Virus record (IMG/VR): IMGVR_UViG_3300033489_000001
Location: 190,023 to 254,022 of that record
From: a virus
Taxonomy: Duplodnaviria; Heunggongvirae; Uroviricota; Caudoviricetes
Reading direction: 5' to 3' (one strand)
DNA: 64,000 nt
Under the pieces are notes generated by a model. The model was not told where the DNA came from, did not search any database, and saw only the letters and a list, made by a program, of their open reading frames with translations. The position numbers were made by a program, and so were the translations under genes. This document shows, piece by piece, positions 1-10,759 of this stretch. Every line of letters starts with the position of its first letter. The first letter of the stretch is position 1.

Positions 1-3000
1 TTCAATTACAGAAAGTAAGTCTTCCTCTTTCAAACTAAAAGGCGGCCAGATGGGGTAGTGGAATCATTTCAATTACAGAGGAAGAATTACTCTTCCTCCT
101 TAAATCGTTGCCCTTCGTGATTTTGGTGAAGGATGTGTTTCAATTACAGAGGGATATTTGCTATCCCTCCTTTCACGCAGATGATCGCGTGCAGGGTCGA
201 TGAGGTTTCAATTCCAGAGGGATATTTACTATCCCTCCTTAGAGGATGGCGAGTATTATTATATTTTCGATATACCCTGTTTCAATTACAGGGAGGGATT
301 AATCCCTCCCCTTGTACCAGAGCCAACGGACGATAAGCCAGCAGTATTTCAATTACAGAGAGGAATTAATTCCCTCCCCTTCTTGGAAAGACTACACAAA
401 TATACTGTTTCAATTACAGAGAGGAATTAATTCCCTCTCCTTTGGCCGAACACGTCCGTGCCACCATCGTTATACCTGTTTCAATTACAGAGGGAGAATT
501 ACTCTCCCTCCTTTCAAAGCCGTTCTTTCCGGTGGACACTACTGGGCGCTGTTTCAATTACATTTCAACTACAGAGGAAAAGTAACTCTTCCTCCTCCTT
601 CTTCCGCAGTCCAAGCGGTTGGGGCGTTGCCGTGTAGTTTCAATTACAGAGGAAGAATTACTCCCCTCCTTTTCCACAACTCATAATCACGGGGCCACGA
701 AGCTTTTGTTTCAATTACAGAGGAAGAATTACTCTCCCTCCTCGACTGGGCATCCCGCCCCTGGGTTCAATGGAATTCAGTTTCAATTCCAGAGGAAGGG
801 ATTAACCTTCCTCCTTTAGTTTAGATATGTCAACCTTCCTGGTTTCAATTTCAGAGGAAGAATTACTCTTCCCCCTTGGAGTGCTTCCTAATGGATACCA
901 CTGTATGTACACCGTTTCAATTACAGAGGAAGAATTACTCTCCCTCCTTTTTGGAATTTGTTCCAAGAGGCTGAGCCATACGTCCAGTTTCAATTACAGA
1001 GGAAGAATTACTCTCCCTCTTTCACCTATACCGGCTGAGATAGAGATTTCGTCGCGTATGTTTCAATTACAGAGGAAGAATTACTCTCCCTCTTTTTGCC
1101 CTTAACGTCGCGCTATGTGAAACAAAATTTCAATTCCGGAGGGAGAATTACTCTCCCTCCTTGTGTGGCGTTAGTGGTTGGTGTACAGCAACTACTATCG
1201 TTTATTTCAATTTCAGAGGGGAGGATTTCCCTCCTTACCTTATAGGACAGGTAATAAGATGACCGCCGTACGGTTTCAATTACAGAGGGAAAATTACTTT
1301 CCCTCCTTATTTCAAGTTCAGCCCAGCTAACTACTTTGTTTCAATTCCATTTCAATCTCAGAGGGAGAATTACTCTCCCTCCTTATCTGTACTTACTCAC
1401 GACCGCGTGGTCTGTAGCTCCGTTTCAATTCCAGAGGAAGAGTTGCTCTCCCTCCTTCTTTCGCAGTAGTCCAAATACGCGAGATACTTGGCTGTTTCAA
1501 TTCCGGAGGGAGAGTAATTCTCCCTCCTTCATATCATTGTTGTAGGTCCTCTAGGACAGGGGTTTCAATTGCATTTCAATTCAGGAGGGAGAATTACTCT
1601 CCCTCCTTACGCGGGACTCCATCATTTGGAGTAAGAAGTTACCCGTTTCAATTACAGAGGAAGGGATTAACCTTCCTCTTTTAGTTTCGATATATTAACT
1701 TCCCCTGGTTTCAATTCCAGAGGGATATTTACTATCCCTCCTTGGGTTAGCTACTAATCCTTGTTTCAATTACAGAGGAAGAGTTATTCTTCCTCCTTAT
1801 CCAAAAAACCACGTTTGGAGCCGGAGATTGGTTTCAATTGCAGGGAGGGATTAATTCCCTCCCCTTCTTTGAAGCGCTTGAAACCTCAACATCAACTACG
1901 TTTCAATTACAGGGAGGGATTAGTTCCCTCCCCTTTGGCAAAGGTGCAAATACCCGTGCGTAGCCGGTTTCAATTGCAAGGAGGGATTAGTTCCCTCCCC
2001 TTCCGGTACATCGCCGCAAGCCAAATCGGGAGTCTTACTGTTTCAATTACAGGGAGGGATTAATTCCCTCTCCTTTGTTGTCTAGGGGAGGGGATGTACC
2101 CGTCTGACATCGGTTTTAATTACAGAGGGATACTTGCTATCCCTCCTTTATCGTCTGCAATTGCATTAGAGCCGAGCTGTTTATTTCAATTTCAGAGGGA
2201 TAGTAAATATCCCTCTCTATGTAACGATTTACAACTTGACGGTTTGTGTTTTTCAATTTCAGAGGGATATTTACTACCCCTCCTTCAGGACTACGGCATG
2301 TTCATGATTTCGCCGCGTTTCAATTTCATTTCGATCTCAGAGGGATATTTACTATCCCTGCTTCCCCGGTTAACCTACTCCTGAAGAGGGAATCAGTACG
2401 TTTCAATTACAGAGGGAGAGTTACTCTCCCTCCTTCTCTTATTCTGTTCCGCTCAAGGATAGAAGCCAAAGTTGCGTTTCAATTACAGAGAAGGAATTAC
2501 TCTTCCTCCTTAAATGTTGCTCGGGGAAATGCCGGTTGAACCTTTCCCGGTTTCAATTACAGAGGAAGAATTACTCTCCCTCATTGAGAAGCATGACCGC
2601 TATCCACAGTTTATGGAAGAGCCGTTTCAATTTCAGAGGGAGAATTACTCTCCCTCCTCTGGTTATTTTCGGGAACGAAACCCCTAATCTCGTTTCAATT
2701 ACAGGAGAAGAATTACTCTCCTCCTTGATTCCTTTCCAAATCTCCCGGACTATCGGACTGTTTCAATTGCAGGGAGGGATTAGTTCCCTCCCCTTCTAGA
2801 TTACCATTCGTGTCCCGCGCGAGATGCAGCGGGTTTCAATTACAGGGAGGGGTTAGTTCCCTCCCCTTATCATATTGAGTCATACCCCCGTGGCCATGAC
2901 TAAGTATGTTTCAATTGCAGGGAGGGATTAATTCCCTCTCCTTGAATGCTAAAGTTGTTTGTTGGGCGATCGAACTTCTGTTTCAATTGCAGGGAGGGAT

Positions 3001-3605
3001 TAGTTCCCTCCTCTTTATTTGATCGCGAATATAACAGGGCCGAACTCGAGGGGTTTCAATTACAGAGGAAGAATTACTCTCCCTCTTTTATTGGGGTCGG
3101 CTTTATCGCGGCGAGTAAGCTTTCTGTTTCAATTACATTTCAATTAAGGAGGAAGAATTACTCTCCCTCCTTGCATTCGAGCAAGGACTCGGTGTGCGCC
3201 GTAGTCTGGTTTCAATTACAGAGGAAGAATTACTCTCCCTCCTTGTCTCAAGACCGGCTCGTAGGGAATGTGCGCTAAACGTTTCAATTACAGAGGAAGA
3301 GTAACTCTCCCTCCTTGCCCTATCGGCTATAGAGAGGGAGAAGTGGCCAATGTTTCAATTACAGAGGAAGAGTAACTCTCCCTCCTTGAGATAGCTCTTT
3401 TCTCCCGTGTCGTCGATGAGTCTGTTTCAATTACAGAGGAAGAGTAACTCTCCCTCCTTTTCCTTGGAATGTCCGCATCCCGCCTGAGAAGCAAGATGTT
3501 TCAATTACAGAGGAAGAGTAACTCTCCCTCCTTGTCTTTTCTTTTTGGGCATCCCTTAATTTTAGGTTGGTTTCAATTACAGAGGAAGAGTAACTCTCCC
3601 TCCTT
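1..3605 (-). CRISPR. CRISPR array, about 51 repeats / 50 spacers in window, continuing past the left edge; 36-nt repeat, leader-end form (minus) AAGGAGGGAGAGTTACTCTTCCTCTGTAATTGAAAC
   Basis: Repeats recur about every 70 nt from 1 to 3605 with mostly 31-40 nt unique spacers (a few 19-29 nt). On the minus strand repeats end ATTGAAAC, stem mismatches become G-U wobbles, and the last 5 repeats (3281-3605) are identical. Confidence 0.98.
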
Positions 3606-3805
3606 AGTACATTTTAATTTCGCAAGGAATTCAACGCCTTATACTATCGTTTTAGAGCACTTCTTGTGCTTCCACACCGGAAGACCCTAAAGTATAAAGA
3701 AATAGAATCCTTGATTTAGCAAATCTATTAAATTGTCAAAGAACTTGTTTTCGAGCACCCTCCAGCTTTTAAGGAGGATATGACCGCTCGAAAACCCCTA
3801 GGAAC
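3606..3805 (-). promoter_or_regulatory. Probable CRISPR leader
   Basis: Non-coding, fairly AT-rich stretch next to the homogeneous end of the array and downstream of the cas operon. Confidence 0.6.
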
Positions 3806-4021: not shown

Positions 4022-4792
4022 CTAACGGAAGCTTTGGACTTCCGTGTCAAACTTCTTTCCAACTCGTATCCGATTTTTGTGCAGTTCCAATCGGATAGTC
4101 GCCATCCGTAAGGGCCGCTTCTCGCTCTTATAAATGTGGTAACCCCCTGCCCAACCTATCCAACCTTGCTCAACAAGTTTTAATTCTTTCAAGTTAGGCC
4201 CTAGGATACGTTCCGGAGTAAGCTTCCAGTTCTTGAATGTCTCGCAGAGTTTTTCAGTGTGCGTCTTGAGGGCTACCTGTGCCTCTATTCTTTTGCCGTC
4301 TAAAGTGTTTCGATCCAAGGTATTGTTTAGGATTAGAACGCAAGTGGCCGCTTGCTCTAGGGTATGTTGTACAATGTCTTGGAGAAGTTCCATTTCAGTG
4401 TTCCACCACTTACCCCCTACGTTATAACTGTCATCAAACCCGTAGATAGCCAGAGGATAGTTAGTCAATCCAATTTCTCTTCTTTCTTCTTTGGATAAAC
4501 TGGCAACGAATCTTGCTTTGATATAACCATCCGCTCTAGCGGCCATCCACGGGACGTTATCTTTCCAATGCTGATATATAATATCTAGCTTTTTATCTAT
4601 CCCAATGAATTGCTTTGGGTTGTGCAGTTTATCGGCCAGAAGAGCGTACATTTCCTTTCCGCTTTCTCCGACTAACTCTAGGTAACTGTATTTGAGCTTA
4701 CCCGCCCCATCCCATAATTCTTCGCAAGTGGAGATAAATCGTAAATTGATCAGCCTCCAGTCGTCTTTTCTATAATCGGTAATGTTTGTCAT
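4022..4792 (-). CDS. Divergent class I SAM-dependent methyltransferase-fold protein
   Basis: YLELVGESG (motif I-like), QFIGID (beta2 acidic motif), AIYGFDDSY (beta4), terminal YHIY..MATIRLEL hairpin; start overlaps the helicase stop (TAATG). Confidence 0.5.
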   Translation of the reverse strand: MTNITDYRKDDWRLINLRFISTCEELWDGAGKLKYSYLELVGESGKEMYALLADKLHNPKQFIGIDKKLDIIYQHWKDNVPWMAARADGYIKARFVASLSKEERREIGLTNYPLAIYGFDDSYNVGGKWWNTEMELLQDIVQHTLEQAATCVLILNNTLDRNTLDGKRIEAQVALKTHTEKLCETFKNWKLTPERILGPNLKELKLVEQGWIGWAGGYHIYKSEKRPLRMATIRLELHKNRIRVGKKFDTEVQSFR

Positions 4793-7107
4793 TACAGGTT
4801 TTCTAACCTAGAGTGGAGTGCAGCGTTCCCTTGTTTTTGGAACAAGGTGTAAACCTCATCGATAACCTTTTTTGGTTTAGTGCCTAATTGATGTGCTTCT
4901 TTAGGGGTCAGGTTACTTAGAAAGTTTTCGTCAGGGCATACTCCTGCTAGGTTAATTGCACCCCAATGATCCACAACAATCGGATATCTCCCAAAATGTG
5001 GAGAGGTACGAATACGGGTTATTTTGTCCGGTCCTTTATCTTGAATCTCGGCACGAAGGATAGGCGGAGATTTCCTTCTGACTACCCAGTCATTATAGAG
5101 GTCATTCACAATAATCGTGTGTTTCACCCAAGGGCTTTGTAGCACGATCCATTCCGATAAATCCCCTCGGAAGCCTTTGTATAAACCTGAGCGTAAATGC
5201 TCATGGTGAGTACGGAAGGATATTTCCGGGTTCACAGGGTCCCAATCCTTTATGGTAGGATACCTCTTTTGTGTGCTAAAGAAGAGGTCAACTCGTTCCT
5301 TAAGCTCTTCTAGAGAACCTAACGGTTGGACTTTGGTTATGATACTCTTAGCTCGAATGCGGACGGATTCAAGGAGCTGGATGTCAATTTTATAAACCTC
5401 CTCCTCTATCTCTGGCACCTCATTTTTGAACTCTTCAAATAAAGCCAGGAGTTGGGCTAAAACAGTTCCGCTCAAATCTTCCTTCAAACTCTGTAAAAGT
5501 TGTAAAAGTTTTTCCTTTGCTTTTTTATGCACGCGAGCAAAGTCTAGGGCTAAAAAAGCGCTAAAAGCTATTTCATCTATTTCAATCTTATGCACCTCAG
5601 CCCATGTTTTAAGGCAATAAAGACGCCCACCGGGACCTAGGCTGGCATACCTTCCCTCGTCCAAGGGAGACTCATGATTTTCTATCCATTTTTGAGCTAA
5701 TTGCTTCAACTCGAATTGAGTTTGGTTTTCTTTGTCCGTACTGACCACATAAAGATTGGAGATTTCAGTACTAATCTCTCTTTTACGTGAAGGAGACATT
5801 CCATCATAAAAATTGCGGAATAGCTTTCCTAGAAATGAAGCACTGTTTAAGGAATCAACAAGCGCCAGCGCTCTGAAAAGGATACCCATATGTTCCTCTC
5901 GACGGGCCGCAGCATCTTCTACACCTCCAACGACGAATATTAAATGGACCTTATTCAGCCACTTTTTTGGGTAACCTTTGAATAGTGCCGTTATGCCATC
6001 TAGCCGAAACTTATTGCGAAGGATTCTTCCTAAGAACTGCTCGAAGAGGACCATCGATTTGGGAATTCCGTATAAAAAAGCCAAACACCTGGAGGGGGAG
6101 TCAACACCTTCCACAATTCGAGAAATCCCTATAAAAATTGTTTGAAACATTGAGTACCGAGCGATACCCAGTTTGATGTGTTCAGCCTCTCTTTCCAGTG
6201 CCCTAAAGAACTCAGGAACGTTTTCCTTTTCTCCATAGCACTTTATAACACCGTTACCTATGACTCTTTTAATCTCTGCAATGGTCTCTTTGTTATCGTT
6301 TTCTCCTCTAGGTTTTAAGCGCAAGATGGCGGGCAACCGCTTAAATCGGTTCCATAATTTTTTTATAGTTAGAGCCCCTTCATGAATGTCAATAGGGATC
6401 AAAATGGCATCATCGTTTGAAGTTCCGCCCCCCTTCACATGAACTATTTCGGATGTAATTTCTTGAGGGCACATTCCCGCAAGCATGAGATCAACTAGAG
6501 ATCTGGTACAGACAAAATCCTCTTTTAGAACAACGGGGAGCTTATCTGACCTATAGGGGGTGCCAGTAAGTTTTCCTATGATCACACCCGCCGCCCGAAG
6601 AGTATCTTCGGCGTGACCTAATTTGAGAATATCGGTTCCTACAGGGGAATGTTGAGCTTCATCAACAAGAAGAAGGAACTTTTTTGCGGGATTTCTTTTT
6701 AAGTGATCTATTACATATTCCTGGACTTTTGGCTCAATAAAAAGACTGTGAGTAAGAGCCAAAATTCTGCCTCGTTTACCAAACTTAGTCCGAAACTCCT
6801 TGCCATCTTTTACGGCTTCTACCAGTCCAATTTTGAACTCTCCCCCGGACCATTTGATGATACTATTGGAGTATCTTGAGAAATGATCTCTAACCGCAGT
6901 GGTCGGAGTAATGACCACTGCATAGTTGAATACTCTATCAACAATTAATTTGGCTGCAAGTGCAAGACCCATAATGGTTTTGCCCCCTCCCGTGGCGTAA
7001 TGCAGCACAAATGAACGAAGCTTTTCCCCTACTTCTTTGAGGAGGTCTACAAAGTCTTCATCCTGATAGGCTCGAAGGTGTATACTAAGTTTTTGTAAAA
7101 AAGCCAT
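4792..7107 (-). CDS. SF2 helicase of ResIII/RadD type (not Cas3; no HD domain)
   Basis: LRAYQ (Q motif) at the N-terminus, TGGGKT, VDEAQH, LTGTPYRSD, IVEGVDSP, EQFLGRILR; long C-terminal extension. Confidence 0.9.
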   Translation of the reverse strand: MAFLQKLSIHLRAYQDEDFVDLLKEVGEKLRSFVLHYATGGGKTIMGLALAAKLIVDRVFNYAVVITPTTAVRDHFSRYSNSIIKWSGGEFKIGLVEAVKDGKEFRTKFGKRGRILALTHSLFIEPKVQEYVIDHLKRNPAKKFLLLVDEAQHSPVGTDILKLGHAEDTLRAAGVIIGKLTGTPYRSDKLPVVLKEDFVCTRSLVDLMLAGMCPQEITSEIVHVKGGGTSNDDAILIPIDIHEGALTIKKLWNRFKRLPAILRLKPRGENDNKETIAEIKRVIGNGVIKCYGEKENVPEFFRALEREAEHIKLGIARYSMFQTIFIGISRIVEGVDSPSRCLAFLYGIPKSMVLFEQFLGRILRNKFRLDGITALFKGYPKKWLNKVHLIFVVGGVEDAAARREEHMGILFRALALVDSLNSASFLGKLFRNFYDGMSPSRKREISTEISNLYVVSTDKENQTQFELKQLAQKWIENHESPLDEGRYASLGPGGRLYCLKTWAEVHKIEIDEIAFSAFLALDFARVHKKAKEKLLQLLQSLKEDLSGTVLAQLLALFEEFKNEVPEIEEEVYKIDIQLLESVRIRAKSIITKVQPLGSLEELKERVDLFFSTQKRYPTIKDWDPVNPEISFRTHHEHLRSGLYKGFRGDLSEWIVLQSPWVKHTIIVNDLYNDWVVRRKSPPILRAEIQDKGPDKITRIRTSPHFGRYPIVVDHWGAINLAGVCPDENFLSNLTPKEAHQLGTKPKKVIDEVYTLFQKQGNAALHSRLENL

Positions 7108-7149
7108 CTAAGCTACTCCGTGTACATTTTACCGAAAACCTAAAACGTG

Positions 7150-7193
7150 ACAGAGAGGGGAAAGAGATTTTTTACATCCCTTCCCCCTCTCTG
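7150..7193 (-). terminator. Long hairpin between cas7 and helicase (terminator or stability element)
   Basis: ACAGAGAGGGGAA / TTCCCCTCTCTGT 13-bp stem, followed on the minus strand by a broken T-run. Confidence 0.55.
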
Positions 7194-7209
7194 TTGGATT
7201 AGCTAGCCT

Positions 7210-8145
7210 TTATGGGTCGATCTCTTCGACAGTAATACCGAGCTTGTCGAGCCCAGTTTTATCAACTTCTACCGTGTAATCCGAGAATGCACTAGGCTTA
7301 GGAACATCCGTATGGATGTTTATGCGTCGGTACAACTTCATGGCCTGAGCATTTCCGTACGGAGACTCGTGATGGAACAGGATGATCTTTTCGACGCAAG
7401 CTCCGAAACGGGTCGTGCTCTTGGTTTGGTCGTACATATGCCTGAAGAGTTCGATGAAAAGTTCGTAATCGTCGTAGCTGAAACCCGTTCTCTTTGCACG
7501 GAACGGATCGATGGAAAACTGGGTAACGCTTACCTCAAAAGGTATATAGGACATCTTACCCATTTCCCGGCTTTTTGTTTTTGCATCAGCGATGCTGGTA
7601 ACTACCGGACGTGTAATAGAGGCTTCTTCTGGATTGATAATGTCAACGCTAAGGCTGAACCCCATTTGAATCGGACCTGTAAGATGGTCGTTGATAGGCG
7701 ATGTCAGGACGCCACCAAAAAAACGCATATCAAGATATTTCTTACACAGTACTTGCACTGTTTGTTCGATCTGTTCTGGGGTGAGGGGATTCCCTTTGGC
7801 CTTTTTTCCTTTTTTGGGCTCTTCCTCGTCTACTTCGATATTTTCGATCTTGACCTTATCTAGCTTGACCCCAGCGGTGGCAAGGGCTTCGCGGAAGATC
7901 TGCTCTAGAGGCTGGCCGTTCGGACGGATATAGAGTTCGTGCCCTCTTAGACTTGCTCCATACCGGATCTTGTATTTAGGCCCTTGTGGAGTCATAATTC
8001 CCCTTCCTGTATAGGGATCTATACGGCGAAGGTTACCATCAGGGTTTAGTTGAAGGTTGCCATTTGTGCAACTTACAACCCCCACTCCATCTGTACGTCG
8101 GTCGTAAACCGAAGCTCCTGCTTTGTTACCGTTTGATTTTTTCAT
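7210..8145 (-). CDS. cas7: Cas7 (type I-C, Csd2-like)
   Basis: NGNLQLNPDGNLRRIDPYTG, YLDMRFFGGV, GPIQMGFS, EEASITR, KRTGFS, HESPYGNA match Cas7c motifs. Confidence 0.93.
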   Translation of the reverse strand: MKKSNGNKAGASVYDRRTDGVGVVSCTNGNLQLNPDGNLRRIDPYTGRGIMTPQGPKYKIRYGASLRGHELYIRPNGQPLEQIFREALATAGVKLDKVKIENIEVDEEEPKKGKKAKGNPLTPEQIEQTVQVLCKKYLDMRFFGGVLTSPINDHLTGPIQMGFSLSVDIINPEEASITRPVVTSIADAKTKSREMGKMSYIPFEVSVTQFSIDPFRAKRTGFSYDDYELFIELFRHMYDQTKSTTRFGACVEKIILFHHESPYGNAQAMKLYRRINIHTDVPKPSAFSDYTVEVDKTGLDKLGITVEEIDP

Positions 8146-8257
8146 CTGATCTGATTCACTTTCTTTCTTTCTTGTTGTTTGATTCGTTATCCCATTCGTT
8201 ATCCCATTCGTTCTTTTTAATTATCTGGGGAAAGATTTCTTCTGAAAAAGAAGAGAC

Positions 8258-9958
8258 TTACTTCCTCTTCTTTCCCTTTACTTTTTCTTCTGTCTTCTCT
8301 TCTGGTTTCTTTTCCCCTTTATGGTTTTTCTGATAGTATAAAAAAGCTAAGAAATGACCAGAAAGGGTCCACTGATTTGAACATCCTTGCGTAATAAGCG
8401 CCCTTTCTACGTCGGTCAATCTATGCATAAGGTTGGTAATATTTACCCCCGCTCTGCTGTAGTCGGAATCCAACTCTTGGAACATAGCCACCCAATGGTT
8501 CCGATTTTTCTTTTCTAATCTTTCTGCAATGTGGAAAGTACCCTGAGTCATCCTCTGGTAAGCCACTACCGGATTAGCTAAAGCCATGCTTAGGATTGTA
8601 CCGGGACTTATGGAATTGCGTTGATGCGCTTGCTGCTTCATTCGGCAGAAAATGGCGATCATACGCCCTAGTGTGTAGTTGGGATCTTTTTCTCTTACTA
8701 GCTCTTGATTCAAATAAACTTTCGGATCAGGCTCTTTTGAAGGATCGTAATTTCCATGATTTAGCACAACGGGTATTCCTTTCCTGTATTGGTAAGCATT
8801 AAACCATCGTTCTTGCATGTAGTCTGTAACTTGACGCCCCCTTAGTTGAGATACCTCTTGTGGATAAGGTTCATTTGTGAGGATTGACCATAGGGCGTAA
8901 AAAATGATAGAGTTCTGGACCTCTTTTGCAGAGCTTAGCCAGAAGTTCGAAACACTCCAAAAACTCCATTCATTAAACTCCTCCCGGAAGCTTAAAAGAG
9001 AAGAAAGAAGCTTCTGTACAGGAATGTGTTCATACCGCATAACCGCATAACGAATTTTTCTCAGTTTCAGTAATGCGGCGCATATATCCGTGGTATCTTT
9101 TTTCGAGATTTTTTCTAACTCGCTCCAAGCTTGTTCTAACTTTTCTTTCTTATCCCCTCTTAGAATTGTAATGGCCAATGGAATGATGGGATGCTCTTTT
9201 TTCTCATGGGGCCACAAAACCAGCCAAGTGTCCTTTGCCAACATGTAAGAGCTGGCGGGCTCTCGTTGTGGTTTTAGCAAACTGTGCAAAGCAGCCGAAT
9301 AGGCTTCAGCTGCCTCGTTAGAAACGGGGAAATTTTCCCCGTACGAGTAGCCACGATACCAGGTAGCCCTCTCGTTAAAAGAAACCAATTTATCCGATCC
9401 CCCTTGGATACCAAGATGTAGACGGGCTAGCCTTTTTTTCTTCCCCGTTATTAGGCAAGAGCCCAGTTTTCCCTCTTCCGCCTTCAGTTCATCTTGTTCT
9501 TGGAGCCAAGCTTGAACGGCAGCATATTCGGCCAAAGGCTTTGTACCGTTGCAAAGGACGATGGTATCCCCCGGTTCTACTGCATGTGTCTTCTTGGTAG
9601 CATCGCGGAAAAGGTAGCCATCATCGGTTACCTTCTGAATTTCCCAATTAAGCCGTAAACAGTGCTCAACTGCTTTTTTGAGGTTAGGGTTTTTAGCTAC
9701 GATTTCCTTAGTAGTAGCCCAGAAAGCCGCATCCTTATCTAAAGCGTACTTAGCTACCTCATAGCAATGGTTCGGTACGGACGACGCATTAGACCCATGG
9801 CACACGGGTTGAGGTACACATAGCGTAGCTTTCTTCTGTTGTACTAGCTTCCCGGTGTTCAGGTCAAAACACCATACGTTTAAAAAGTTGCGATCATAAA
9901 CGACGGGTTTTTTACCAATTCGATTCCCATAGGCCGTTAAGGAGGAAAGGAGGTCCAT
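8258..9958 (-). CDS. cas8c: Cas8c (Csd1) with C-terminal Cas11-like domain
   Basis: CLITG..RLARLH, KLVSFNE, ENFPVS.EAAEAY..AL..LL; C-terminal YTLGRMIAIF Cas11 motif; abuts cas5. Confidence 0.9.
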   Translation of the reverse strand: MDLLSSLTAYGNRIGKKPVVYDRNFLNVWCFDLNTGKLVQQKKATLCVPQPVCHGSNASSVPNHCYEVAKYALDKDAAFWATTKEIVAKNPNLKKAVEHCLRLNWEIQKVTDDGYLFRDATKKTHAVEPGDTIVLCNGTKPLAEYAAVQAWLQEQDELKAEEGKLGSCLITGKKKRLARLHLGIQGGSDKLVSFNERATWYRGYSYGENFPVSNEAAEAYSAALHSLLKPQREPASSYMLAKDTWLVLWPHEKKEHPIIPLAITILRGDKKEKLEQAWSELEKISKKDTTDICAALLKLRKIRYAVMRYEHIPVQKLLSSLLSFREEFNEWSFWSVSNFWLSSAKEVQNSIIFYALWSILTNEPYPQEVSQLRGRQVTDYMQERWFNAYQYRKGIPVVLNHGNYDPSKEPDPKVYLNQELVREKDPNYTLGRMIAIFCRMKQQAHQRNSISPGTILSMALANPVVAYQRMTQGTFHIAERLEKKNRNHWVAMFQELDSDYSRAGVNITNLMHRLTDVERALITQGCSNQWTLSGHFLAFLYYQKNHKGEKKPEEKTEEKVKGKKRK

Positions 9959-10597
9959 CTAAGCCACCTCCTTAACTTTCATGATCCCCCACTTTTTTAC
10001 TTCTTCCCACGATGGATAGTGAACCACGCCCCTCTTTACTTGGAGAGGAGCAAAGTACTGTGGTTGCCGAGGATCAGTAAAGTCCGTTCCGAAATAAGAA
10101 AGGCCAAGATCTTGGGTTAGATCGATTGCTTTTGGAAGAGGCCCCTCGTGCAGTTCCACTAAGGCCATGCACTCACGGATACCGAAGTAGACTTGTCTCC
10201 TCTGTCTCCCCCGCTTTGCACGTTCGGCAAACATTTTGTCAAACTTTGGGATCGTATCTTCTGGCGGATTCGCGTTAGAAGAAAGTTCCATGTGCCCAAT
10301 AAAGAGATAGTCCACATTTCTCAGGTAAACGTTGGTTCTTTGGGTGTGCTGTTTCTCATGGGTGTACGGCCCCGGCCCGTTAAATTTCAGTTCGTTTTGG
10401 GTTATGATTATGTAGCGAGGTTCCGCTAAAATATGAACCTCTGTGACGAACCAATTGACCGCTAGATGTCCCATGATGCCCCTGAAAAGCCCTACCCCCG
10501 CATCATGCGACCCTATGATTTGCGAATGTCTTTCCGATCGGAAAGCCGGTGGGGTCCACATCGCAAATGGACCACTTGCGCGGATAATCCAGTTCAT
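9959..10597 (-). CDS. cas5: Cas5c (Cas5d), divergent
   Basis: GPFAMWTPPAFRSER, QRTNVYLRNVDY, KMFAERAKRG..VYFGIREC match Cas5c; start reassigned to 10597 because GGAG lies 6 nt upstream. Confidence 0.9.
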   Translation of the reverse strand: MNWIIRASGPFAMWTPPAFRSERHSQIIGSHDAGVGLFRGIMGHLAVNWFVTEVHILAEPRYIIITQNELKFNGPGPYTHEKQHTQRTNVYLRNVDYLFIGHMELSSNANPPEDTIPKFDKMFAERAKRGRQRRQVYFGIRECMALVELHEGPLPKAIDLTQDLGLSYFGTDFTDPRQPQYFAPLQVKRGVVHYPSWEEVKKWGIMKVKEVA

Positions 10598-10759
10598 ATT
10601 CATCTCCATTTGATCTGCGGTTGTATATACAACCAGTTTTTCAAGCGTTCCAACGATAAGATATGGCAACCTTCCTGTAAAGAGAAAATTGAAAGAAAGT
10701 TACAAGTCTATGAAACTACAACTGTTTCATAGACTTGTAACAAGAAGCGCTAATTACCA

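Follow-up and report, generated by a model that had tools for sequence, protein, structure and literature searches.

Loss of the nuclease among class 1 CRISPR systems is seen in type IV and in the transposon-borne type I-F and I-B systems. In type IV-B, a CysH-like accessory enzyme with a small-molecule-type fold accompanies a class 1 effector that lacks a nuclease, and to our knowledge these systems have no helicase. Type IV-A systems with the DinG helicase are reported to achieve interference that is independent of a nuclease (PMC11519345, 10.1101/2023.06.23.546257). The closest described system is the 'type I-C variant' of huge phages, which has a Cas5d-like protein without Cas6, lacks Cas1 and Cas2, and carries a helicase in the place of Cas3 (Al-Shayeb et al. 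2020, Nature 578:425, PMC7162821, Extended Data Fig. 9). The main text and legends of that paper name only the helicase, and neither the gene studied here, ORF X, nor the small protein encoded after it.

The locus described below belongs to a soil phage with a genome of 411,618 bp, which has direct terminal repeats and is rated complete. The window that was analysed is a stretch of 64,000 nucleotides of that genome (positions 190,023 to 254,022 of IMG/VR record IMGVR_UViG_3300033489_000001). The system itself is already published as the huge-phage type I-C variant, and ORF X was never named in it; what is new here is the predicted fold of X, its conserved SAM-type motifs and its family-wide linkage to the system. 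X is best explained as a signature gene of this type I-C variant of huge phages, in which Cas3 is missing.

RESULTS

Organization of the CRISPR locus

The operon has the order cas5c-cas8c-cas7c, SF2 helicase, ORF X, small wHTH-like protein, leader and array (Table 1). X thus lies between cas7c/helicase and the CRISPR array, as an earlier note on this DNA had placed it, between the Cascade genes and the array. The canonical features of type I-C that are present are Cas5c, Cas8c and Cas7c, all of which score below the NCBIfam cut-offs, and repeats ending ATTGAAAC. The canonical features that are missing from the complete genome are Cas3, with its HD nuclease and helicase, Cas1 and Cas2; a search of the 411 kb for Cas1, Cas2 and Cas3_HD found none of the three. 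The window system has the features of the variant reported by Al-Shayeb et al. (2020), namely a huge-phage genome, a Cas5d-like protein without Cas6, a helicase at the position of Cas3, and neither Cas1 nor Cas2. Directly upstream of cas5c lies an ORF for a Myb-like domain protein. Genes called upstream of cas5 in the other loci gave no Pfam match, and this ORF therefore seems not to be a conserved component.

A search of the supplementary GenBank files of the published study (PMC7162821) with an X-family motif located the same operon in GD_PHAGE_62_180. There Cas5, Csd1 and Csd2 are followed, in this order, by a 776-aa helicase, a 246-aa X homologue and a 72-aa small protein, and the deposited file labels each of the latter three 'hypothetical protein'. 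No description of a methyltransferase-fold partner for the type I-C variant turned up in the literature searched. Among the sequencing runs that contain this stretch no RNA run is listed, and the sole match is a soil metagenome, the probable source.

Table 1. Features of the CRISPR locus, in window coordinates
Feature	Position	Strand	Description
CRISPR array	1..3605	(-)	Fills the start of the window and extends to about -995; about 65 repeats in all
Repeats with duplicated end	551-597, 1338-1384, 1562-1608, 2317-2363, 3126-3172
Leader	3606..3805	(-)	About 200 nt; separates the small gene from the first repeat
Small protein, 66 aa	3806..4006	(-)	wHTH-like by sequence pattern; directly after ORF X
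ORF X, 256 aa	4022..4792	(-)	Orphan protein of predicted class I SAM-methyltransferase fold (translation, AF2 model, structure searches, family conservation)
SF2 helicase/translocase, 771 aa	4792..7107	(-)	Pfam ResIII, E 1.5e-8; in the usual place of Cas3
cas7c (Csd2-like)	7210..8145	(-)	Pfam Cas_Cas7, E 3e-48; NCBIfam cas_Csd2, 142.6 bits, below the 182-bit cut-off
cas8c (Csd1-like)	8258..9958	(-)	Pfam Cas_Csd1, E 1e-31; PADLOC Cas8c, E 1e-29
cas5c (Cas5d-like)	9959..10669	(-)	Pfam Cas_Cas5d, E 1.2e-9; PADLOC Cas5c, E 2.6e-26
Myb-like domain ORF, 319 aa	10760..11719	(-)	Pfam, E 1.6e-6

The array holds 64 spacers with a median length of 36 nt. Read on the minus strand, the repeats have a hairpin followed by ...TGTAATTGAAAC; since this repeat end is of the type I-C kind, the array reads in the direction of the cas genes. 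The spacers gave no match above chance to the phage's own genome or to the related loci, and no match to the phage collection. Identity among the repeats is confined to the five next to the leader (3281-3605). The older repeats vary at many positions, with the hairpin retained by paired changes and the ATTGAAAC-type tail retained as well. In five repeats the 11-nt repeat end is tandemly duplicated (plus strand GTTTCAATTNCATTTCAA...), so that the 3' handle sequence would occur twice on the transcript.

ORF X is a gene coupled to the helicase

The frame of X is open throughout, with no internal stops, and the peptides singled out in the earlier note are found in its translation at residues 37-45 (YLELVGESG), 62-66 (FIGID) and 117-123 (YGFDDSY). 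At the junction with the helicase the minus strand reads CTG TAA TG, in which the helicase stop (TAA, 4794-4792) and the start of X (ATG, 4792-4790) have base 4792 in common; the start/stop overlap (TAATG) described previously is therefore real. X is single-copy within the whole phage genome, as judged by a genome-wide search. It gave no match in Pfam, NCBIfam, PADLOC, PHROGs or the PDB sequences, and neither X nor the helicase gave a tblastn match in INPHARED, a collection of GenBank phages. Homologues were found down to E 4e-64, and an exhaustive profile search returned 128 representatives at E <= 1e-3, of which 81 have E <= 1e-10. These representatives stand for clusters at 50% identity, and nearly all have 190-300 aa. 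Because of the homologues at E 4e-64, the 128 profile representatives and the recurrent gene order, X is not a chance ORF, and it is virtually certain to be a real CRISPR-linked gene.

Gene order was compared at 14 distinct loci in which X could be placed, namely the window, twelve other loci and the published genome GD_PHAGE_62_180. The helicase is directly upstream of X in 11 of the 14, and Cas5c-Cas8c-Cas7c is upstream of X in 11 of the 12 loci with a flank that reaches that far. The helicase-X order holds also for distant members of the family, with profile E values of 3e-17 (L014) and 4e-8 (L015). In eight loci the start of X overlaps the stop of the helicase or is at most 4 nt away from it; this recurrence of a tight start/stop geometry in other loci bears out the coupling to the helicase that had been proposed from the window alone. 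In two further loci no stop interrupts the X frame ahead of the start that was called, and translation may therefore begin closer to the helicase stop. The small protein follows X in most loci. An alignment shows the motif ...QAxAAxAILRIK...SRW to be common to 8 loci, and the small protein is also present in L017 and GD_PHAGE_62_180. L017 is the one additional locus recovered when a metagenome collection was scanned with the X family; the same scan of IMG/VR gave no locus.

Some loci depart from this arrangement. In L007 (1614-10813) an array of about 57 repeats (4203-8888) is located between the helicase and X, and the genes called within the span of the array are probably spurious ORFs. In L013 (8206-10981) a helicase homologue that lacks RecA1, aligning to positions 190-697 of the profile, is followed by X and the small protein, with no Cascade genes upstream of X. 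The link between X and Cascade is not absolute because of this locus, which may be either decaying or a free-standing helicase-X-wHTH module. L008 is too short for the neighbours of X to be judged. In L006 (514-2639) two separate ORFs, covering profile positions 1-210 and 224-755, make up the helicase, which is whole in the near-identical L005. An extra small ORF follows the array in L010 (14156-14371) and in L012 (12426-12746); they are linked by way of the small-protein profile, to which one of the two had itself contributed, and this makes the evidence weak.

Predicted fold of X

The AlphaFold (AF2) model of X has a pLDDT of 82 and a pTM of 0.84, from an input alignment of five sequences with which 2 of the 5 models were poor (pLDDT about 50). 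ESMFold2 folds the protein at a pLDDT of 77-81. In the AF2 model the order of elements is beta1 (36-40), helix, beta2 (62-66), helix, beta3 (83-86), helix, beta4 (114-120), long helix, beta5 (151-158), helix, and a beta6/beta7 hairpin (212-238). The peptide YLELVGESG is found at the end of beta1, FIGID on beta2 and YGFDDSY at the end of beta4. The model and the match lists together indicate that the class I SAM-methyltransferase core is present, with its seven strands and C-terminal beta6-beta7 hairpin.

The model was used to search for structural homologues. The best 50 matches returned by Foldseek against the PDB were all methyltransferases, with E values of about 1e-4. VIA-align, which is independent of Foldseek, was run against 48,161 chains and gave Z-scores of 10.9-9.6 over 155-190 aligned residues; the matches are methyltransferases or spermidine/spermine synthases, with the one exception of a plant GRAS-domain protein (PDB code: 6kpd). 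Matches in BFVD and the ESM Atlas are viral and bacterial methyltransferases. A further structural neighbour in the ESM Atlas, PF28273 (PP_RS20740), was uninformative, the sole paper naming it giving it as a 'hypothetical protein'. The class I topology with a terminal beta-hairpin that the earlier note had read from the sequence is reproduced by the AF2 model and by all three structure searches, in which essentially all the best matches are methyltransferases. Structure prediction followed by Foldseek, the check suggested there, was carried out and returns a predicted Rossmann methyltransferase, and on these models X very probably has the methyltransferase fold.

The nearest solved structures are METTL13 (5wcj), Bud23 (4qtt), SgvM (8ftv), RlmO (4dmg), TrmN (3tma) and Trm14 (3tlj). 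The Rossmann core of X resembles theirs with Z-scores of 10.4-10.9 and an rmsd of 3.2-3.8 Å over 155-178 aligned residues, whereas the sequence identity amounts to 8-13% and none of the families ranks clearly ahead. Scores are level (Z 10.9 to 9.8) over enzymes that act on rRNA, tRNA, protein and small molecules, so that neither a subfamily nor a substrate is assignable. With so many methyltransferase families contributing matches in even measure, the searches establish a fold and not a function, and they do not discriminate between DNA, RNA, protein and a small molecule as substrate. In comparison to these solved methyltransferases, X is elaborated with a conserved N-terminal helix (K9, W12, R13, N16) and a C-terminal signature (Y221, S223, R229-M230, T232, R234).

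Conserved residues of the X family

Conservation was evaluated from an alignment of 95 sequences with a mean column identity of 19%. The canonical motif I of class I methyltransferases is (D/E)xGxGxG, located after beta1. The corresponding region of X is E39-L-V-G42-E-S-G45, in which position 39 is E or D in 97% of the sequences, G42 is found in 94% and G45 in 76%. Two of the three canonical glycine positions are substituted and only the glycines G42 and G45 are retained, in agreement with the degenerate Gly-rich motif noted before. In class I methyltransferases an acidic residue at the end of beta2 contacts the ribose of SAM and an acidic residue after beta3 contacts the adenine. Both are present in the X family: D66, at the end of beta2, is D or E in 96%, and D88 of the G87-D88 pair after beta3 is D, N or E in 97%. 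From their strand positions we infer that E39, G42, D66 and D88 are placed in the SAM pocket.

Residues K9, D120 and M230 are invariant across the family, N156 is conserved in 99% and R234 in 97% of the sequences. In the model, D120 is at the end of beta4, the site of motif IV, and N156 at the end of beta5. The N-terminal helix, in which the invariant K9 is accompanied by W12, R13 and N16, is specific to the family, and the hairpin carries Y221, S223, R229, the invariant M230, T232 and R234. Family members are basic, with a median pI of 9.0. The motif IV region of X reads G-F-D-D, with a family consensus of N-x-D, and fits no known catalytic signature, as it is neither (D/N/S)PP(Y/F/W) nor K-D-K-E and has no catalytic Cys motif. 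The K-D-K-E tetrad of 2'-O-methyltransferases was considered for K9, D120 and N156 and was rejected, as the second Lys is replaced by N156 and no conserved Glu follows. A candidate COMT-like metal site formed by D120, N156 and D160 is only a possibility.

Sequence models of known methyltransferases do not recognize the family. None of those in Pfam, NCBIfam and PHROGs matches X or the 95 and 27 members that were scanned, and no PADLOC methylase or DISARM model matches the scanned members. The family profile gave only chance-level matches to PDB sequences (an aminopeptidase and a glutaminyl cyclase), and hhalign of the 95-sequence profile against Escherichia coli RsmD returned a probability of 0.1%, in what is a weak test with a single-sequence template. 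The pattern of conservation speaks more for a functional enzyme that binds SAM and meets nucleic acid than for a dead scaffold, and we predict that X probably binds SAM and is catalytically active.

The helicase and its pairing with X

The helicase begins at the ATPase core, in the Q/Walker A region, and has the motifs GGGKT (40-44) and DEAQH (149-153). Its model comprises RecA1, RecA2, a helical stretch of poor confidence and, at residues 580-771, a C-terminal domain that is all-helical and confidently predicted; no HD or other nuclease domain is seen in it. Foldseek neighbours are mostly dsDNA translocases and repair helicases (Chd1/ISWI, XPB, RadD, HsdR), and the RNA helicases Brr2 and Dbp10 also appear among them. 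The matches in PADLOC are only weak, to PbeA (5e-6) and Cas3b (0.019). The C-terminal domain, encoded by window positions 4795-5370, has a pLDDT of about 90. It has no family assignment, and its invariant residues are S598, P617, F631, L638, L650 and W660. In the model this domain would be a candidate docking site for Cascade or for X.

Prediction of a complex between helicase residues 196-771 and X gave a median ipSAE of 0.39 (runs of 0.39, 0.00 and 0.63), against 0.00 for the best control; contact agreement between the runs is at least 0%, and the pLDDT of the partners is at least 77. Of 80 solved complexes 58 reach the mark applied in this prediction, as do 2 of 110 mismatched pairs; passes at 0.60 or under comprise only 7 of the 80 solved complexes and both mismatches. 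The predicted complex therefore lends weak support to a contact between the helicase and X. We consider it probable that X acts together with the helicase.

DISCUSSION

In its likely mode of action the window system is most like type IV-A, with a helicase and no nuclease. The two have in common a Cascade-like complex with a nuclease-free helicase, the lack of an adaptation module and carriage on a mobile element. The outcome described there is silencing and not cleavage, and the same is proposed for the window system. The two differ in their complexes, as type IV-A has Csf1-3 whereas the Cascade of the window is of I-C descent (Cas5c, Cas8c, Cas7c), and in their helicases, which are DinG there and a ResIII-type SF2 enzyme here; type IV-A is also not known to have a methyltransferase-fold partner. 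The likeness to type IV-B lies in an accessory protein joined to a nuclease-less effector. The accessory fold of type IV-B is an adenine-nucleotide alpha-hydrolase, in contrast to the predicted Rossmann methyltransferase of X.

The earlier note had also compared the helicase and X to the helicase-methylase pairs of type III restriction-modification (R-M) and DISARM-like modules. The likeness to type I and III R-M systems (HsdR/Res with HsdM/Mod) is that a gene for a ResIII-family SF2 translocase stands beside one for a SAM-methyltransferase fold, and that those systems have a separate specificity module, a role that Cascade and the crRNA would fill here. The difference is that X has neither a Pfam DNA-methylase match nor a (D/N/S)PP(Y/F) motif, and that the helicase has no endonuclease domain. 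The Pfam model N6_N4_Mtase, which covers type III Mod and HsdM, does not match the X family, in which (D/N/S)PP(Y/F/W) is not found. The PADLOC models of DISARM (DrmA, DrmB, DrmC, DrmMI/MII) match neither X nor the helicase. Membership in type III R-M or DISARM is thus unsupported, there being no Pfam methylase, PADLOC methylase or DISARM match, and with N-x-D / G-F-D at motif IV in place of (D/N/S)PP(Y/F), X does not belong with the R-M amino-methylases. Given the lack of a model match and the divergent motif IV, the resemblance is an analogy of parts, a translocase and a methylase fold; it is a likeness of parts and not of descent.

The best explanation that we can offer for the whole, and one that we regard as evenly balanced between right and wrong, is that an active X and the helicase form the effector that replaces Cas3 in a type I-C variant. 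X and the helicase would be made in fixed proportion, because start and stop overlap, and X would be in complex with the helicase. Cascade would locate the DNA target matched by the crRNA, and the helicase-X pair would be recruited as effector in the stead of Cas3. X could then transfer a methyl group to nucleic acid at or near the target, and the outcome would be marking or silencing of the target and not its degradation, as in type IV-A. With no enzyme that cuts DNA, and with a methyltransferase-shaped partner beside the helicase, the system may mark or silence its targets. More specific versions of this explanation are more doubtful. Methylation directed by the crRNA, the possibility raised in the earlier note, is compatible with the data; that X methylates the target DNA specified by the crRNA is a putative activity to which we give only a small chance. 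It is quite unlikely, if conceivable, that Cascade brings in the translocase and the methyltransferase as a pair, and that this pair places methyl marks on the DNA specified by the crRNA or along DNA reeled in by the helicase; the system would then be a putative natural RNA-guided epigenetic writer, silencing or tagging genes of the host or of rival phages without cutting them.

The degenerate motif I, and the lack of a methyltransferase HMM match among 95 members, would also be in keeping with X being a catalytically dead methyltransferase-fold adaptor, which bridges or regulates the helicase and Cascade while interference proceeds by roadblock or translocation as in type IV-A. Inactive methyltransferase-fold partners are known from other complexes, for instance METTL14 and Trm6. 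The strict pairing and translational coupling of X with the helicase are in line with such a role, as is the presence among the structural matches of Trm6-Trm61, a pair with an inactive subunit (5erg). However, the columns expected to contact SAM (E39, G42, D66, D88) are conserved at 94-97% and are among the best conserved in the family despite its mean identity of 19%, and an invariant Asp is found at the catalytic end of beta4, which is the pattern expected of a working cofactor pocket. On balance we judge a dead adaptor to be unlikely.

An active X might instead be an RNA methyltransferase that acts on the crRNA, for example on its ends after cleavage by Cas5c, or on target or host RNA, and not on DNA. 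X is basic, and many of the near structures are rRNA or tRNA enzymes (RlmO, TrmN, Trm14, Bud23, METT-10/METTL16, MnmM, Hen1), with RsmD-, RlmD- and RlmI-like families as neighbours in the ESM Atlas. Small-molecule and protein enzymes (SgvM, ChlM, METTL13) nevertheless score as high, with Z-scores of 10.4-10.9, and the neighbouring translocase resembles mostly dsDNA translocases (Snf2, XPB, HsdR), though Brr2 and Dbp10 appear. Nor does X have the K-D-K-E of the 2'-O-methyltransferases, with N156 at the second Lys, or the NPPY of the amino-methyltransferases. RNA as the substrate appears quite improbable to us.

Orphan methyltransferases are frequent in phages, and the BFVD matches of X include phage cytosine methyltransferases (E 3.5e-4 to 1.8e-3), as would suit an ordinary phage DNA methyltransferase that counters host restriction and came to lie in the cas operon by chance. 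It is very unlikely that X is such an enzyme: its position is held in 11 of 14 loci, even where identity falls to about 22%, it is single-copy and inside the operon, it has no N6_N4_Mtase match, and 256 aa leave no room for a target-recognition domain. Use of SAM for aminopropyl or aminocarboxypropyl transfer, or the mere sensing of SAM, is just as poorly credible, as the spermidine/spermine synthases among the matches (Z 9.6-10.1) are a small minority and the X alignment has no polyamine-synthase signature.

Returning to X as an active partner of the helicase, nuclease-less class 1 systems pose the question of what the consequence of target binding is, and here that consequence probably resides in two conserved proteins that are unstudied. 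Within the methyltransferase fold, X represents an orphan branch of at least 128 clusters at 50% identity, which is unlabelled in published genomes. If X is active, the system would be, as far as is known from the literature searched, the first in which a methyltransferase forms the core of a CRISPR effector module, and it would provide a natural scaffold, and a compact one, for modification guided by RNA. An inert X would likely be an adaptor that explains how a foreign helicase is fitted to a I-C Cascade.
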